A stretch of DNA of 64,000 bases from Spirochaetia bacterium. Lineage in GTDB: Bacteria > Spirochaetota > Spirochaetia > SZUA-6 > Bin103. A program made the position numbers and the translations under genes. The notes beneath the pieces were generated by a model that saw only the letters and a program-made list of their open reading frames with translations, had not been told where the DNA came from and did no database searches. This document shows positions 18,260 to 24,462 of this stretch, in pieces. Each line of letters begins with the position of its first letter. The stretch's first letter is position 1. Where the stretch lies: contig CBDBDQ010000005.1 in NCBI GenBank assembly GCA_965203905.1, forward strand, positions 3,648,001 through 3,712,000, read 5' to 3'.

Positions 18260-20153
18260 CCAGGTGCCTCATCGAAAAATCCACTCGAGATGAAGCCGAT
18301 GACTCATCCAAATATCCACTCAAAGCAGGTGGCGGTAAAGGGGGGTGGGGGTGCGGGGGCGGGGGGTGTCCTGACCTGTGGATATGTGGACAAGTCGGTA
18401 CTTTGAGATGACCGGTGGAAAGCCACCGTGGACGGCGCGTAGCAGTCGACGCGGGCCTTTGTAGCGGTATTCTGAACGGGCGTTCCATTCTCAGTGCTTC
18501 CAGAAACACTGTGTCCAAAACGTGCCGGTCCTGGGACACCCCCGGAGTCCGGCCCGTAGCGGCTTGGCACGCGGCGTTGGTCTGGCCCTGGCGGCGCCGC
18601 GGCGCGCACTCTGGCCACGGCGCGAGGCACCTCGCAGCGGGTGGTGCAGCGCGTGCCTGAGGTGCAAGCCACCCATGGTCCCGTGGTGCGGGCTGGATCG
18701 CGTACTCGCAACTTGATCGTGCCACCAGCGCAGCAACCGCGCCGTTGGCAGGCGGCTGGCCCGCTGAGCGCCCGCGGTGTGCAGCAGGTGTGGCCCACGA
18801 CGATAAGCATCCCTATCAGCCGGCCTTCTTCAGCGCCGTGGAGTGCTGTGCAGCCAAGCGCAGCAAGCGGCGTTGCAGGTGCACGATCTGATCATTCACG
18901 GCGATCGGGTCGAGCGCCGCGAACTGCTGCCGCAGGCGCTGCTTGGCCGCCTCGGGTACCTCGGCACAGGCCAGTACCCGCTGATACGGAGTCTGCGGGC
19001 GATCATAGCGCCGCCTGACCCGTGCCCCATGGCGGGTCTTCTCGATCAGCTTCGCGCACGGGCGCACGAAGTTGACCATCAGCCGCAGCCGGTCATACAG
19101 CTCGTTGAGCAGTGCGACCGCCTCGGGAGTGTCGTAGCGGACGTAGCCGACATGCTTGCGCACCACGTCGAAGTTCTTCTGCTCGGTGAAATTGTTGTCG
19201 TTCTTGCGATACGCGCGCCCACGCGTGAAGTCGATCTGCTGCTCCTCGCAGTAACGGACCAGATGAGCATTTATGAACTCGCTGCCGTTATCCGAATGCA
19301 CCGCCAACAGCTCGAAGGGGAGCAGGTGGCGCACTACCAGGAGTTGCTGGAACACCCATTTCTGGGCCTTGTTGGGCACCGCGCGGAACTCCGTCCACTG
19401 GGTGCGGCGGTCCGTGGCCAGCAGCGTGTAGGCAAACTCACCGCTCGTGGTGCCGCCGTCGTGGCCGACCAGATCAAGACCCAGGGTGCCGAGCGCGACA
19501 CCCTCCCACTCGCTGAAGGTACGGATCGGGATCTGCAGCATCAGGCTGCCGGTGGGCCGCTTGGTGTGACTGTGCCCGCGCAGCGTCAGCTTGCGTTTCT
19601 CGGTGCGCAGCAGCCGGTCGATGGTTGCCGGGCTGATGCGCACCAGCTTGGCGCGCACCTCGGGGGTGAGCGCGATCTTGCGCTTGCTGCGTGCCTCCCA
19701 ACGCTCGTAGTTCGGTAACCACAGGCGCAGGGTAGCCGCCAAGCGTTTGCCACACAGGTAGCCGAAATGGTGCCATAGCTTGATCAGAGCGGCGACCACC
19801 TCCTGATCGTAGACGCGTGGCGTACGCCGCCGTGCACGGCGCTGACCGACCACGATCTTGACCGGCCGCCCGCCGCGCTGATCCCACACGCTGGTACCCC
19901 AGCAGCGCAGCAGCCAAGCGGCATGGTGGCGGGTGCAGCCGGTCAGATCCATGTACTCCTTGATGAGCTGTCCCTTCTCCTTCTTCGATGCCTTCCGATA
20001 GCGTCTCGCCTTCTCCCGAGCGACCCCTTTCTGCTCATTCATGGTGAGCCCCATCTCCTCCGACCTCCGGCCCTACAATGGCCAAGTCGTTCGAGTGGAT
20101 TTTTCGATGAGGCATCAGTTTCCGTTCGAGTGGATTTTGAGTGAGGCAATTCG
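18260..20153 (-). mobile_element. insertion sequence (IS481/ISNCY-like, rve transposase) with duplicated subterminal inverted repeats
   Basis: TGCCTCATCGAAAAATCCACTCGA (18265-18288) is the exact inverse of 20091-20114; second imperfect copies at 18300-18323 and 20126-20148; CGAGG direct repeat at 18255-18259 and 20154-20158. Confidence 0.8.
18816..20054 (-). CDS. integrase-core (rve) DDE transposase
   Basis: RRYRKASKKEKG N-terminus, ISPATIDRLL, DLVGHDG, HSDNGSEF, NDNNFTEQKN, TPYQRVL; GGAGG RBS. Confidence 0.9.
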   Translation of the reverse strand: MGLTMNEQKGVAREKARRYRKASKKEKGQLIKEYMDLTGCTRHHAAWLLRCWGTSVWDQRGGRPVKIVVGQRRARRRTPRVYDQEVVAALIKLWHHFGYLCGKRLAATLRLWLPNYERWEARSKRKIALTPEVRAKLVRISPATIDRLLRTEKRKLTLRGHSHTKRPTGSLMLQIPIRTFSEWEGVALGTLGLDLVGHDGGTTSGEFAYTLLATDRRTQWTEFRAVPNKAQKWVFQQLLVVRHLLPFELLAVHSDNGSEFINAHLVRYCEEQQIDFTRGRAYRKNDNNFTEQKNFDVVRKHVGYVRYDTPEAVALLNELYDRLRLMVNFVRPCAKLIEKTRHGARVRRRYDRPQTPYQRVLACAEVPEAAKQRLRQQFAALDPIAVNDQIVHLQRRLLRLAAQHSTALKKAG

Positions 20154-20275: not shown

Positions 20276-21712
20276 ATGAAGCAACCCAACGTCGTCTATC
20301 TGCTGGCGGATCAACTGCGGGCGCGCTCGCTGCCGGCCTATGGCGAGGGGCAGATCGCGACGCCGAACATCGACCGCCTCGTGCGCGAGGGGATCAGGTT
20401 CACCAATGCCGTTGCCACCTGTCCGCTGTGCGCGCCGTATCGCTCGATGCTGGTCACCGGCAGGCAGCCGCTGGAGACCGGGCACGTCATCAACAACCTG
20501 CGAGCACGCCACGACGAGATCAGCATCGCCGACGCCTTCAACCACGCTGGCTACCGCACCGGCTGGGTGGGGAAGTGGCACCTCTACTCCGGTGAGCGGC
20601 CCGAGATCGTGGACTTCGAGTACATCCCCGACGGCAGGGACCGGCTCGGGTTCGACTATTTCAGGGCCTACAACTATCACACCCAGTACTTCGACGGCCC
20701 GCTGTGTCTCGACGGCGGCGGCCATGAGCGGTGGCGCGGGTACGAGACGATCGGACTGCTGCGGTACGTCGACGAGTTTCTGGAGGCAGCGACGGAGAAC
20801 GGGGAGCCGTTCTGCCTGTTCGTGGCGCCGCACATGCCGCACCACGGCGGGGCGATTCCGGGCGGGAGGGTGACCCAGGATGCGTCACCGAGCGGGCGGC
20901 TCGCCCCCGACGACTGCCTGCGGCGCGTTCCCGAGCAGCCGGTGCTGCCACCGAACGTGCCTCCGGAGCTGTTGGCCGAAGCAACCGACTGCTACCGCGA
21001 CTACCTGGCCATGACCGTTGCCGTGGACGACATGCTGGGTGCGATCCTGCGACGGCTGCAGCGCGACGAGCTGGTCGACGACACGATCGTGGTGTTCGGT
21101 TCCGATCATGGTTCACTGATGGGTGCGCACGGACTGCAGCCGTGGCAGAAGCGCACCCCCTGGGAAGAGAGCGTGTCGGTCCCGCTGGTGGCACGCCTGC
21201 CGCGGGGGCACCGCGGCGGCAGTGTCTGCGACGCGCTGGTGGCGCCGGAGGATCTGTTCCCGACGCTGTGCGGCCTGTGCGGCATCGACGTGCCACGGAC
21301 GGTCAGCGGTCGCAATCAGGCAGACGTCTGGCTGGGGCGTTCCGGCGCGGCCGAACGGCAGGCGCTGTTCACTTACTGCATCGACGACGCCCTGCTGACC
21401 GGGACGACCGGTTCGGAGTGGAAGGGAGTGCGCACCGAGCACTGGAGCTACTGGCGCTGCCTCGACGGGAGCACGGCTCTGTACGACATCCGCGCCGACC
21501 CGCTGCAGTTGCGCGATTTGGTGGACAGCGAGGAGCATCGCCCCGTCGTGGCGCGAATGGAAGCAACACTTGAACGCTTCATGACCGAGTGGCACGACGC
21601 CATGCAGCCGGCCACCGAGTACCTGAACTGGTTCGACGGGCGGCGCATAGTCAGCAACACGTTCGGCCGGTTGGGCGATCCGTTCAAGGAACCCGACGGG
21701 TCATTGCTGTAG
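20276..21712 (+). CDS. formylglycine-dependent sulfatase
   Basis: PNVVYLLADQLRA, CAPYR (CxPxR), GKWHL, SDHG, PWEESVSVPL, DPLQLRDL. Confidence 0.92.
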   Translation: MKQPNVVYLLADQLRARSLPAYGEGQIATPNIDRLVREGIRFTNAVATCPLCAPYRSMLVTGRQPLETGHVINNLRARHDEISIADAFNHAGYRTGWVGKWHLYSGERPEIVDFEYIPDGRDRLGFDYFRAYNYHTQYFDGPLCLDGGGHERWRGYETIGLLRYVDEFLEAATENGEPFCLFVAPHMPHHGGAIPGGRVTQDASPSGRLAPDDCLRRVPEQPVLPPNVPPELLAEATDCYRDYLAMTVAVDDMLGAILRRLQRDELVDDTIVVFGSDHGSLMGAHGLQPWQKRTPWEESVSVPLVARLPRGHRGGSVCDALVAPEDLFPTLCGLCGIDVPRTVSGRNQADVWLGRSGAAERQALFTYCIDDALLTGTTGSEWKGVRTEHWSYWRCLDGSTALYDIRADPLQLRDLVDSEEHRPVVARMEATLERFMTEWHDAMQPATEYLNWFDGRRIVSNTFGRLGDPFKEPDGSLL

Positions 21713-21727
21713 CCGGGCTGGGATACT

Positions 21728-21880
21728 TCACTCAGTTGGAGGAGGCTGTTGCTGCGGTGGTGGTGACGGTTGCGGCTGTGCCGGAGGTTGCCTACGCGGC
21801 GGTCGGGGAGGCGGAGGTATGGGAATGTTCGGCGGGCGAGGAATCGGCTGTGGCGCTCCCCTGGTACGATCTCCACTCAA
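21728..21880 (-). CDS. putative 50-aa proline-rich microprotein (not in the ORF track)
   Basis: TTG at 21880 overlaps the TGA of the upstream gene, with AGGA 9 nt upstream; MSGDRTRGAPQPIPRPPNIPIPPPPRPPRRQPPAQPQPSPPPQQQPPPTE*; 22 of 50 residues are Pro, using all four Pro codons. Confidence 0.6.
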   Translation of the reverse strand: MSGDRTRGAPQPIPRPPNIPIPPPPRPPRRQPPAQPQPSPPPQQQPPPTE

Positions 21881-22458
21881 AGATCGAATTCCTGCCTTAT
21901 TCGCAAATGCGTATACTTTACCGCTTTCTCCTGTAGTTTTTCCTTTACATTTCCCATTTTTTGTGCCTGTTCAGAGGTAACGACGTCCACCTTTTCCTCC
22001 AATGCACGCACTCTTGACAGGATCTCCTGATCATCCGTTGCGCCAAGCTCTTCCCATAGCTTTCTCCACTCGCGGGACATGGCTCTGCACGCTCCTTCCA
22101 TCGACACTGCCGCAGCATGTTTCTCCGAGAACCTGAACAGGATCGACAAAAGAGCTACCGTTGCCACTATGGAACTCAATCCAATATATACAAGCTTCGG
22201 TCCTTGCCCCAGGATCGTGGCTACGGCAACGGTAGAAAAGAGTACTTGTGTGAGGTTGGACATATTCTGCCAGAACAGGAATCTCCTCCCCACACGATAC
22301 AGATACTCTACGTCCTCGTCGCTCTTTACCAAGCCGTTCCAAACGCTACGTTCCACGAACCTCTGGATCGGATCGTCCTCCTGGACGATCGCGGACTCTG
22401 TAGGCCTCTCCAAAGACATTACTTTGCCTTTAGACTGCTCTTGTACAGTTCCTGACAT
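21877..22458 (-). CDS. SLATT-like two-transmembrane protein
   Basis: AGGAGG RBS; two hydrophobic helices (LTQVLFSTVAVATIL; VYIGLSSIVATVALLSILF) followed by FSEKHAAA and a helical tail; DNA visibly AT-richer than the flanks. Confidence 0.6.
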   Translation of the reverse strand: MSGTVQEQSKGKVMSLERPTESAIVQEDDPIQRFVERSVWNGLVKSDEDVEYLYRVGRRFLFWQNMSNLTQVLFSTVAVATILGQGPKLVYIGLSSIVATVALLSILFRFSEKHAAAVSMEGACRAMSREWRKLWEELGATDDQEILSRVRALEEKVDVVTSEQAQKMGNVKEKLQEKAVKYTHLRIRQEFDL

Positions 22459-22962
22459 TGTTTCCTCCTGCTATCAGCTGGCCTAAAGAACGCGAACGGT
22501 TCAACTTGATGTACAGCAAGCCAAATGGACAACGCTCCACGAGCCGCCGCTACACTATCAGGAGATTCTATAACCAACGGGCGGACGCGGCCTTCTGCGC
22601 TACCTCGCGCCGCAGCTCTGGCGCCTGGCTGGCAGCTCGCGCTTTGGCACTGTTGACGCGTCCGGCAGGTGGCTCGGACTGCTAGTGCTCCGCGAGCACC
22701 CGCTCCTTGCCGTTCGGCACCGCGCCCGCGGACATGCCGACGACAAGCTTGCCGCGCTGCACCGCCGTCCCTCGGTCTGCTCGGTAGTGCCATGCGGTCG
22801 CGCCTCCATGTACGCGCTGGTTGCTGTGGTGCAACCGCTCGCGCGTAGCACATAGTCTATGTATATGCGTGATGTCGCGCAAATGGGCAACCCGCACGCT
22901 TCCGCACGTCCCGCCGACACTGACCGCTCGTTTCATGACAACGGAGGACTTCGGCCCGGCGG

Positions 22963-24462
22963 TCAGGAGCTGCTGGCGCGGAACGAGTACAGGTGGGCGT
23001 CGCGGACCTCGAAGAAGAGCCGGATGCGCTTGCCCGCCAGGTCGCGGGCCGAGCGGCCGTCCTGCCAGGTCAGCGGCTTCACGGCCAGCGCGTCGCGCTC
23101 CGGCCTGGTCCACACCGGTTCCTCGTCGAAGTTCCGGGTGTTGCGGTTGATCGGGTTGCAGTCGCCGAAGCCGTAGCCGTCGAGCGGCTTGTTCTCCGCA
23201 TCGCGCAGCTCCACCCGGATGCTGCCGTAGGTGCCGTCGTCGCCGCTGTGGTGGCCCGTGATGTCGCGCCGCGGGTCGGCATTCACCAGCAACTCGCCGC
23301 CCGGCCAGGTGACCGGCTTTGTCAGTAACGCCCCCGGCTGTTCGCCGCTGTACAGGGAGCAGAACCCGTCGATGCGCAGCGTTGCCAGGCCGATCGCCCC
23401 GTAGGCCTCGGGGAACTGCGCGCCGTGGCCGCCGGCCCTGCCGGAGTAGTAGAACCAGAGCTGGTTGTAGTTGACGATGGGCGGATTGGTCGGCAGGTTG
23501 AGCCACGTCGAGTCGAAGCTGCCCTGGGGCCCGCGCGGAATGAACGGTTGTCTGGGGATGCTGCGGTGCCAGTCCTTGCCGTCGTAGCTCCACACCAGTT
23601 CCTCCTCCAGCACGTCGGGGATGGTGTGCATGCGCAGCGCACCGGCCAGCCAGATGCCCTCGTAGTAGAACGGCGTGAGCGAGTAGTACTGCATCTGCCA
23701 GGGATCGTCGGTCCCCGGCTTCATCACCTGCTCTCCGGGTGTCCAGTGGATCAGGTCCTCGCTCTCGGTGTAGGAAACGGGCCGCTTGCGCGGAAACGGG
23801 TCCAGGCCGTACTCGGTGACGAAGTCGGTACGCCCCTTCCAAAGGCCGGCCCGCTCGATGCCGGTCTCGAAGGTGCCGCGGCCGTATACCCGGTACTTGC
23901 CGTCCACCTTGTCGGTGACCGCCACGAAACGGTCGTCCCACTTGTGCAGGACGTTGCCCAGCGACTCGAAGTGGATCCCGTCCTTGGAGCGGGTGGCGAA
24001 GATGCCCCAGTGGTCGGGGTTGACGTCCAGCGAGTCCCAGTACAGCAGCTTGTAGGGCCATTCGTCGTCGGGCTCGTAGATCATGGCGCAGTCGTCGATG
24101 AAGCCGTCCGGCAGGGCCGGCTGGATCACGATGTTGTTGTTCCTGTTGCCGCCGAACTCGCAGATCCCCAGGAACGGCCGCTCCCAGTGGATGCCGTCGT
24201 CGCTCTCGGCGTAGCAGACGCGCGGCTTCGACGAGTTGCGCGTGCCCACGTACCACATGCGGAACTTGCCGTCGACGCGCAGCACCGTCCCGTACAGGCA
24301 AGGGCAGTCGCCCTCCCACGGGTATTTGCCCTCCATCACCGGCTTGGGATACTTCTGCGGCTGATGCCACACCCGCTGCACGCGGACGTGGTCGTCAATC
24401 AGGCGGTCGTCGAGGAAGAGCTGGCTGTTGCGCAGGTCTCCGGAATGGGCTTCGGCCTTCAT
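22963..24462 (-). CDS. GH32/GH43-like five-bladed beta-propeller protein
   Basis: QLFLDD, FRMWY, CYAESDDGIHWERP, SEDLIHWT, IGLATLRIDGF, VNAD; GGAGG RBS. Confidence 0.7.
   Translation of the reverse strand: MKAEAHSGDLRNSQLFLDDRLIDDHVRVQRVWHQPQKYPKPVMEGKYPWEGDCPCLYGTVLRVDGKFRMWYVGTRNSSKPRVCYAESDDGIHWERPFLGICEFGGNRNNNIVIQPALPDGFIDDCAMIYEPDDEWPYKLLYWDSLDVNPDHWGIFATRSKDGIHFESLGNVLHKWDDRFVAVTDKVDGKYRVYGRGTFETGIERAGLWKGRTDFVTEYGLDPFPRKRPVSYTESEDLIHWTPGEQVMKPGTDDPWQMQYYSLTPFYYEGIWLAGALRMHTIPDVLEEELVWSYDGKDWHRSIPRQPFIPRGPQGSFDSTWLNLPTNPPIVNYNQLWFYYSGRAGGHGAQFPEAYGAIGLATLRIDGFCSLYSGEQPGALLTKPVTWPGGELLVNADPRRDITGHHSGDDGTYGSIRVELRDAENKPLDGYGFGDCNPINRNTRNFDEEPVWTRPERDALAVKPLTWQDGRSARDLAGKRIRLFFEVRDAHLYSFRASSS

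Follow-up and report, generated by a model that had tools for sequence, protein, structure and literature searches.

A SLATT-like membrane protein gene and a coupled proline-rich peptide gene form a conserved two-gene module in bacteria

Does a proline-rich open reading frame (ORF) of 50 codons, which opens on the stop codon of a membrane protein gene, encode a real protein, and what would such a protein do for its neighbour? This question is raised by a locus of a Spirochaetia bacterium (GenBank assembly GCA_965203905.1, contig CBDBDQ010000005.1), located in the stretch of 64,000 nt (positions 3,648,001 to 3,712,000 of the forward strand) that was analyzed here and is called the window below. 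An earlier interpretation, made from the letters alone (the sequence-only reading), had seen in it a minimal toxin-antitoxin (TA) or abortive-infection module, in which a small peptide restrains or triggers a SLATT-like membrane effector. Our analysis indicated that the proline-rich ORF is a real protein-coding gene under purifying selection and that, together with the SLATT-like membrane protein gene which it overlaps or abuts, it constitutes a conserved and self-contained two-gene module. The conservation of this pair across many bacterial phyla argues that the hidden peptide is real, and that it probably controls the membrane protein. Whether the module associates an effector with a dedicated partner peptide, with a conflict or TA-like function, seems to us evenly balanced. 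The features concerned are as follows.

21728..21880, minus strand: peptide ORF of 50 codons, proline-rich, TTG start (ORF and translation)
21877..22458, minus strand: gene of the SLATT-like membrane protein of 193 amino acids, P0001 (ORF and translation)
21877..21880, minus strand: TTGA start/stop overlap, site of translational coupling (plus-strand letters TCAA)
22464..22469, minus strand: AGGAGG Shine-Dalgarno (SD) sequence, 5 nt upstream of the membrane protein ATG (sequence)
21721..22563, minus strand: approximate transferable unit, i.e., the upstream region and both genes, coincident with the low-GC islet (breakpoints in other samples, GC profile)

The architecture of the locus, as described in the sequence-only reading, was confirmed in its details. 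The TGA of the membrane protein gene indeed shares the letters TTGA with the TTG that opens the peptide ORF, and a strong AGGAGG (22469..22464) precedes the ATG of this gene. The latter has a G+C content of 0.50 and lies in an AT-richer islet (approximately 0.51-0.53 G+C, versus 0.65-0.70 in the flanks). Proline accounts for 22 of the 50 residues of the peptide and is encoded by four codons (CCG, 10 times; CCT, 6; CCA, 4; CCC, 2), which is not a simple DNA repeat, Tandem Repeats Finder having found none; the motif PRPP is present twice.

The main evidence comes from the homologous loci. A first alignment, used as a query, gave no related loci in genome or metagenome contigs, and a later one gave 47 named loci from genome contigs, which belong, according to record titles, to Pseudomonadota, Acidobacteriota, Nitrospirota, Binatota, Tectimicrobiota, Latescibacterota and Chloroflexota; together with the loci of the window’s own taxonomic family, they amounted to 77 unique loci. 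A proline-rich frame, defined as a stop-free segment of 20 residues with at least 10 prolines between -30 and +200 nt of the membrane gene stop, was found in 52 of these 77 loci, as compared with 45 of 5000 random 230-nt segments of the window’s own high-GC genome. It was also found in low-GC loci (L055, L062, L063 and L081, where the membrane gene has 0.44-0.46 G+C). An intact ORF, with an ATG, GTG or TTG start located between -60 and +35 of the membrane gene stop, was present at 50/77 loci. Five more loci have an open proline frame devoid of a canonical start, three of them in frame with the upstream gene; one locus is a false positive and 21 fall below the threshold, including truncated genes, the frameshifted remnants L058 and L069, the fusion L091 (in frame), and three Dehalococcoidia loci in which the ORF is poorer in proline but retains Y-P-P-R. 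Translation of the DNA downstream of the homologs thus bore out the claim that the membrane protein gene is coupled to a proline-rich peptide gene.

The way in which the two genes are coupled varies from one locus to another. Most often, the peptide opens with an ATG located at -8 or at -11 (14 loci each) and embedded in the conserved C-terminal Tyr-Ala codons of the membrane protein (tATGcc); an ATG at -8, -11 or -14 opens 31 of the 50 intact ORFs. The NTGA overlap seen in the window was observed in five of the intact loci, others starting just past the stop. With respect to the upstream gene, the peptide lies in the +1 frame in 44 loci, in the -1 frame in nine and in frame in three. Read-through and a single programmed frameshift were considered as sources of the proline-rich sequence; three frame relations, together with independent start codons, rule out any single mechanism of this kind. 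Close relatives differ by small changes in homopolymers. One-nucleotide indels switch the start from ATG at -11 (+1 frame) in L018 and L022 to GTG at -1 (GTGA overlap) in L020 and L021. Similarly, two loci of genome G006 located approximately 5.7 kb apart on one contig (L024 and L032), the membrane proteins of which are 64-65% identical to that of the window, differ by a 24-nt indel in their peptides: one copy has an ATG-started peptide of 40 residues, and the other has an extra C in a run of C, which brings the proline frame into the frame of the upstream gene and deprives it of a start codon. Such homopolymer differences may be real variation or assembly errors.

Selection on the proline frame is in line with a coding function. 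Pooled over 18 pairs, the ratio of non-synonymous to synonymous differences (pN/pS) was 0.28 in the proline frame versus 1.80 and 2.48 in the two other frames, the alignments having been guided by the peptide frame, which favors it somewhat. Between the window and L032, differences numbered 4, 5 and 20 at codon positions 1, 2 and 3, respectively. In the best-sampled clade, where 55 non-independent pairs were used, pN/pS rose from 0.00 in the proline run to 0.12 in the K-P-A-R-P-G motif, and further to 0.37 in the charged tail and 0.55 in the N-terminal stretch. By our own count, five of the seven variants listed for the window peptide ORF in other samples are synonymous third-position changes. 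Judging from these substitution patterns, protein-level selection acts over the whole length of the peptide.

The peptides, which are cytosolic and range from about 31 to 62 residues across homologous loci, share a common layout: they begin with a polar stretch, continue with the motif G-x-P-[AP]-R-P and 4 to 16 consecutive prolines, and end in a charged tail. The alignment of 37 peptides gave the core G-x-P-[AP]-R-P-x3-PPPPPP, in which P10 and P16 are invariant, and R15, P22, P24 and P25 nearly so; in the window, this core reads G8-A-P10-Q-P-I-P-R15-P16, followed by P22-P25. Some divergent peptides (the L018-L022 group, L089, L090 and L092) have few consecutive prolines. The window peptide carries a net charge of +4 and motifs of the P-R-P type, and its hydropathy profile shows neither a signal peptide nor a hydrophobic segment. 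Searches of Pfam, NCBIfam, PADLOC (window copy) and PHROGs (five copies) gave no family match for the peptides, and none of 10 peptides, as delimited here, was present in a collection of 15 billion proteins; gene callers evidently miss these peptides or pick other starts.

The family of the membrane protein is large. With a profile built from 12 members, 1168 representative clusters were matched at E<=1e-3, and 548 when E was limited to 1e-10; most of the clusters count 160-180 residues and end where the profile ends. The 30 close homologs of P0001 count 158-202 residues, and the full-length ones stop at the end of P0001 (...RIRQEF plus two or three residues). The homologs thus end at the same residue as P0001, so that the gene is complete; this shared end excludes that the proline ORF is a frameshifted, displaced C-terminal tail of the 193-residue protein. 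The AlphaFold2 model of P0001 is all-helical (predicted local distance difference test score, pLDDT, of 78), with helices at 30-84, 88-108, 110-136, 143-168 and 173-191, which suggests a cytosolic N-terminal helix, a helical hairpin at approximately 62-108 and three C-terminal cytosolic helices. In accordance with this predicted layout, hydropathy revealed a strong segment at 88-111, corresponding to the second hairpin helix, and a weaker one before it; in a typical family member, P0063, two such segments lie side by side. According to both model and hydropathy, P0001 thus shares a feature of SLATT proteins, in which a pair of transmembrane helices precedes a helical region in the cytosol.

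Kinship with SLATT proteins is probable, at a distance. P0001 matched SLATT_4 (NF033632) of NCBIfam with 23.9 bits (E 3.1e-5) for a cut-off of 55, SLATT_1 with 16.1 bits for a cut-off of 41, and TIGR04402 weakly; in Pfam, it had no SLATT match at E<=1. When the SLATT_4 model was searched genome-wide, the family loci were recovered solely below the cut-off. Among 130 family representatives, 89 matched SLATT_4 (best E 2.4e-10) and 73 matched SLATT_1 in NCBIfam at E<=0.01, the corresponding numbers in Pfam being 16 and 21; in ESM-Atlas, SLATT_4 was found on eight of the 30 nearest clusters. PADLOC gave a single marginal match for P0001 (E 0.008), and PHROGs one marginal match to a family of unknown function for which the control genomes gave no match. 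The description of P0001 as SLATT-like in the sequence-only reading is therefore supported as regards a probable remote kinship, and fails as regards the curated cut-offs: from these profile matches, P0001 may be placed on a remote branch nearest to SLATT_4, without being a member by curated criteria.

The pair behaves as a unit. Contigs from other samples match the window from 21721-21744 to 22551-22563 and diverge beyond; these breakpoints enclose both genes, which makes the upstream region and both genes the shared piece. The junction between gene and peptide is spanned by RNA-library contigs from two runs that belong to a single study; the evidence is weak, as DNA may be present in libraries of this type. 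A maximum-likelihood tree was built from 72 family proteins: the peptide occurs in all of its major clades, with scattered absences, well-supported branches forcing at least 11 changes in its presence, and proteins from different phyla are intermixed at short branches. This pattern is that of an ancestral pair that moves horizontally and sometimes decays; on such phylogenetic grounds, the pair has been both inherited and horizontally transferred, as one unit of approximately 0.8 kb, across many phyla. In many loci, the G+C content of the membrane gene is below that of its flanks. Within the phylum, the family was found in 14 of the 24 genomes of the window’s family and in none of 400 other sampled genomes, with up to six matches in one genome (G009). 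The genome of the window itself carries, outside the window, a second and very divergent copy of the membrane gene (L036, G000:C5:4653591-4654085), with its own TTGA-coupled proline-rich ORF of 48 residues.

As to the surroundings of the pair, no third gene family recurs beside it beyond synteny among close relatives, and neither a nucleotide cyclase, nor a TIR protein, nor a reverse transcriptase was found among 89 flanking ORFs of 34 loci. This agrees with the minimal two-gene unit, devoid of a nucleotide-making enzyme nearby, that had been claimed for the window. Ten of these 34 scanned named loci have a restriction-modification, ApeA-HEPN, AAA_21/DUF4276, VapB, NYN, Mrr/HNH or PD-(D/E)XK neighbor. 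An ApeA-type HEPN gene (Pfam ApeA_NTD1, HEPN_Apea) lies upstream of the pair in L064 and L065 (Nitrospirota) and in L076 (Latescibacterota), the latter having also a VapB antitoxin-like ORF downstream. In L018, L020 and L022 (genus g2), an ORF beginning ...KPTTIRLPDEVLNELDRRA... and located approximately 150-250 nt past the membrane gene stop, after the peptide gene, has by eye the look of a ribbon-helix-helix (CopG-type) protein; in L019, L021 and L035, an enolase-superfamily-like gene follows at the place of this CopG-like ORF. In L046 (G009), where the peptide is missing, an in-frame ORF right after the stop reads ...QPFQYQGSKRLLAP... and resembles, by eye, a Dam-type DNA adenine methyltransferase.

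In the window, the pair is surrounded by a sulfatase and hydrolases. The sulfatase gene is convergent to the peptide ORF and stops at 21712, 15 nt from the peptide stop; on the other side, the islet is separated from an amidohydrolase gene by an ORF of 499 amino acids (22963..24462, minus strand), for which Pfam gave no match at E<=1. No nucleotidyltransferase is adjacent to the pair, as had been stated. An ORF of 412 amino acids (18816..20054, minus strand) matched the integrase core (rve) with 31.9 bits for a Pfam cut-off of 32.6 (E 1.6e-7); it is probably an insertion sequence transposase, and the sulfatase gene lies within the 1.7 kb that separate it from the islet. A simple scan of the unit detected neither a sigma-70-like promoter nor an intrinsic terminator; no meaningful flanking repeats were seen around it, and Rfam gave no RNA family at the locus.

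From a mechanistic point of view, the membrane protein would act as an effector by perturbing membranes, a role ascribed to SLATT proteins in the cyclic oligonucleotide-based antiphage signaling system (CBASS), in type VII Thoeris and in the defense-associated reverse transcriptase system DRT10. The peptide would be made by ribosomes that have just finished with the effector, its supply being thereby tied to that of the effector, and it would bind the cytosolic helices of the effector as an extended polyproline ligand, setting whether the effector assembles. As no signal-making or sensor partner accompanies the pair, the peptide is the only candidate regulator. Side chains of tryptophan and tyrosine are of the kind that bind polyproline helices in other proteins, and the invariant or near-invariant residues of the family include W40, Y52 and W135; that these residues contact the peptide is an idea, not a result.

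A physical association between the two partners is pointed to by two types of observation. Firstly, natural in-frame fusions carry the proline-rich tail on the membrane protein itself (L091, P0169 and P0180). Secondly, complex prediction gave an ipSAE (interaction prediction score from aligned errors) of 0.33 versus 0.01 for the best control, with a pLDDT of at least 53 for the partner and at least 57% of contacts common between runs. This support is weak: in calibration, the mark used was attained by 116 of 157 solved complexes, as against two of 215 mismatches, but scores of 0.60 or under comprised only 18 of the 157 solved complexes and both passing mismatches.

Regarding the direction of the control, restraint of the effector by the peptide, like that of an antitoxin, would be favored only slightly over activation. 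Restraint would fit the precedent of SpoIISA and SpoIISB, as well as the tight coupling of the genes, whereas loci with an intact membrane gene and no peptide fit an enabling or dispensable partner better. The proline run would, moreover, make peptide output depend on translation capacity of the type provided by elongation factor P (EF-P), a dependence which is plausible from the codon content of the ORF, and release of the effector could, speculatively, be coupled to translational stress or phage takeover. In its most general form, this reasoning would make polyproline micro-proteins, as a widespread class overlooked by annotation, the built-in gates of stand-alone SLATT-type effectors, reading translation capacity and releasing the effector when it fails; we consider this generalization unlikely. 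Peptide supply would then require ribosomes to reinitiate after the effector gene and then to cross a long proline run, so that EF-P, prolyl-tRNA and phage takeover would be the inputs of the gate. If true, it would amount to an immune or addiction sensor that operates without a nucleotide signal or a dedicated sensor protein.

Several results weigh against an effector controlled by its peptide. P0001 lies below every curated SLATT cut-off of NCBIfam and Pfam; hhalign against seven bona fide SLATT_4-type proteins gave a probability of 20% (E 1e-3) over 41 columns, corresponding to the second transmembrane helix and the next helix, and Foldseek against the PDB gave no informative neighbor, only generic helical bundles at E>=0.08. 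Unless there is a strong prior, complex scores of this level are, according to the tool itself, incorrect in the majority of cases. SD-like sequences precede only 11 of 42 peptide starts, being weak or absent at the other 31, so that peptide yield may be low. According to our reading of the translations, about 10 of the 77 loci have an intact-looking membrane ORF and no recognizable peptide (L027, L033, L034, L046, L054, L067, L068, L079, L093 and the first of two family ORFs in L028), which argues against a strictly essential antitoxin. Finally, 24 of the 34 scanned loci have housekeeping or unassigned neighbors only, and searches of phage, plasmid and viral-contig collections returned no relatives of the family.

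These last observations are also those expected from another explanation, in which the pair would have no role in conflict and would consist of an accessory membrane protein and its partner peptide, with an ordinary envelope or stress function, spread among bacteria that share habitats. The window neighbors, a sulfatase and hydrolases, the sub-threshold kinship with SLATT proteins and the negative searches among phages, plasmids and viral contigs are in accordance with it. By contrast, the patchy and multi-copy distribution, the transfer across phyla, the low-GC islet, the defense, restriction or TA-type neighbors at 10 of the 34 scanned loci, and the fact that the nearest named families are immune effectors are less expected from an ordinary function, which we regard as rather improbable.

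The proline ORF could also act purely in cis, as an EF-P-dependent element that stalls ribosomes near the 3' end of the mRNA and so tunes termination, upstream expression or the stability of the transcript, the released peptide being functionless. This would agree with a proline run located right after the coupled start, with the weak or absent SD-like sequences, and with the residues conserved ahead of the run, since arrest peptides too have conserved residues ahead of a proline. Stalling on polyproline and its relief by EF-P are established (PMC5885033, PMC11990639). However, selection extends to the charged tail and to the motif before the run, the natural fusions retain the proline-rich segment as protein, several divergent peptides have few consecutive prolines, and no conserved downstream gene is there to be regulated, the next gene of the window being convergent. 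Tail selection and fusions, in particular, disfavor an element acting only in cis, which we hold to be unlikely.

The roles of the two partners might conversely be exchanged, the peptide being the active agent, an intracellular or exported blocker of ribosomes or chaperones similar to proline-rich antimicrobial peptides (PrAMPs), and the membrane protein its exporter or immunity factor. The window peptide is indeed cationic with motifs of the P-R-P type, the ribosomal exit tunnel is the site to which PrAMPs bind (PMC4797290, PMC13233979), and many hosts originate from dense host-associated communities according to record titles and run labels. The peptide nevertheless has neither a signal peptide nor a hydrophobic segment, matches none of the families searched, and has no conserved processing or ABC-export genes nearby; the nearest families of the membrane protein are effectors and not transporters, and the resemblance lies in composition and in short motifs only. 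Such a role seems very unlikely. Lastly, a chance frame in C-rich high-GC DNA, or a Rho-utilization-type C-rich RNA tract, is refuted for all practical purposes: the ORF is rich in C on its sense strand (65 C versus 35 G over 153 nt) and a high-GC genome does yield some proline-rich frames, as in the random segments above, but the frequency of the ORF in the family, its codon-position periodicity, purifying selection confined to one frame, its conserved start codon, its presence in low-GC genomes and a residue motif kept across phyla through synonymous changes all contradict this view.

The SLATT-like effector with its own coupled peptide, which we retain as the favored explanation, bears on the way stand-alone SLATT-like genes are controlled, known SLATT effectors requiring a separate signal-making enzyme in CBASS, type VII Thoeris and DRT10. 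Among the papers found that associate SLATT with proline-rich, 2TM, Thoeris or SMODS/SLOG, titles and the opening lines of abstracts mention no proline-rich partner. The family comprises hundreds of clusters and occurs in many uncultured lineages, with a fixed partner that gene callers have missed, and it serves as a caution that defense-like modules can have their missing half in a micro-ORF which overlaps a stop codon. It also suggests a possible link between polyproline translation and the control of membrane effectors, and its two small genes offer a concrete and cheap experimental system.

Comparison with known systems helps to situate this pair. Polyproline ORFs that depend on EF-P and proline leader peptides (PMC5885033) share with it a run of proline codons in a very short ORF coupled to a membrane protein gene. 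Leader peptides are, however, located upstream and control downstream genes, whereas the proline ORF is here the last of the unit. Animal PrAMPs (PMC4797290, PMC13233979) are likewise short, cationic and proline-rich, with Arg-Pro motifs, yet they are host-defense peptides, secreted and then imported into target bacteria, while the present peptides come from bacteria, have no export signal and go together with a membrane protein gene.

The role attributed to SLATT proteins in CBASS, in type VII Thoeris (ThsH) and in DRT10/UG17 is that of effectors which breach the membrane (10.64898/2025.12.03.692087, 10.64898/2026.04.29.721553, PMC9226505). The present family resembles the SLATT superfamily (NF033632 / PF18186 SLATT_4, SLATT_1) by its small proteins, in which a helical membrane hairpin precedes cytosolic helices, and by sub-threshold hidden Markov model matches that are consistent across the family; like SLATT effectors, its gene is mobile, patchy and sometimes found in defense neighborhoods. 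Unlike them, it scores under all curated cut-offs, has no nucleotide cyclase, TIR, reverse transcriptase or SLOG/SAVED sensor fused or adjacent, and has a proline-rich micro-protein as its conserved partner. In the one bona fide SLATT_4 locus that was inspected (L095), no clear proline-rich ORF was seen downstream.

The SpoIISA/SpoIISB pair of Bacillus subtilis offers a precedent for restraint, a small cytosolic antitoxin binding and neutralizing a membrane toxin (PMC3057836, PMC4926146). In SpoIIS, toxicity and neutralization have been demonstrated, whereas they are putative in the present pair, the small gene of which is missing at about 10 of the 77 loci. SpoIISB is not known to be proline-rich. 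The likeness is one of gene order, no relation in sequence being expected: in both cases, a membrane protein gene is followed by the gene of a small cytosolic protein, in what would here too be one operon. As in TA systems, finally, the two genes are adjacent, co-oriented and translationally coupled, and form a mobile unit.

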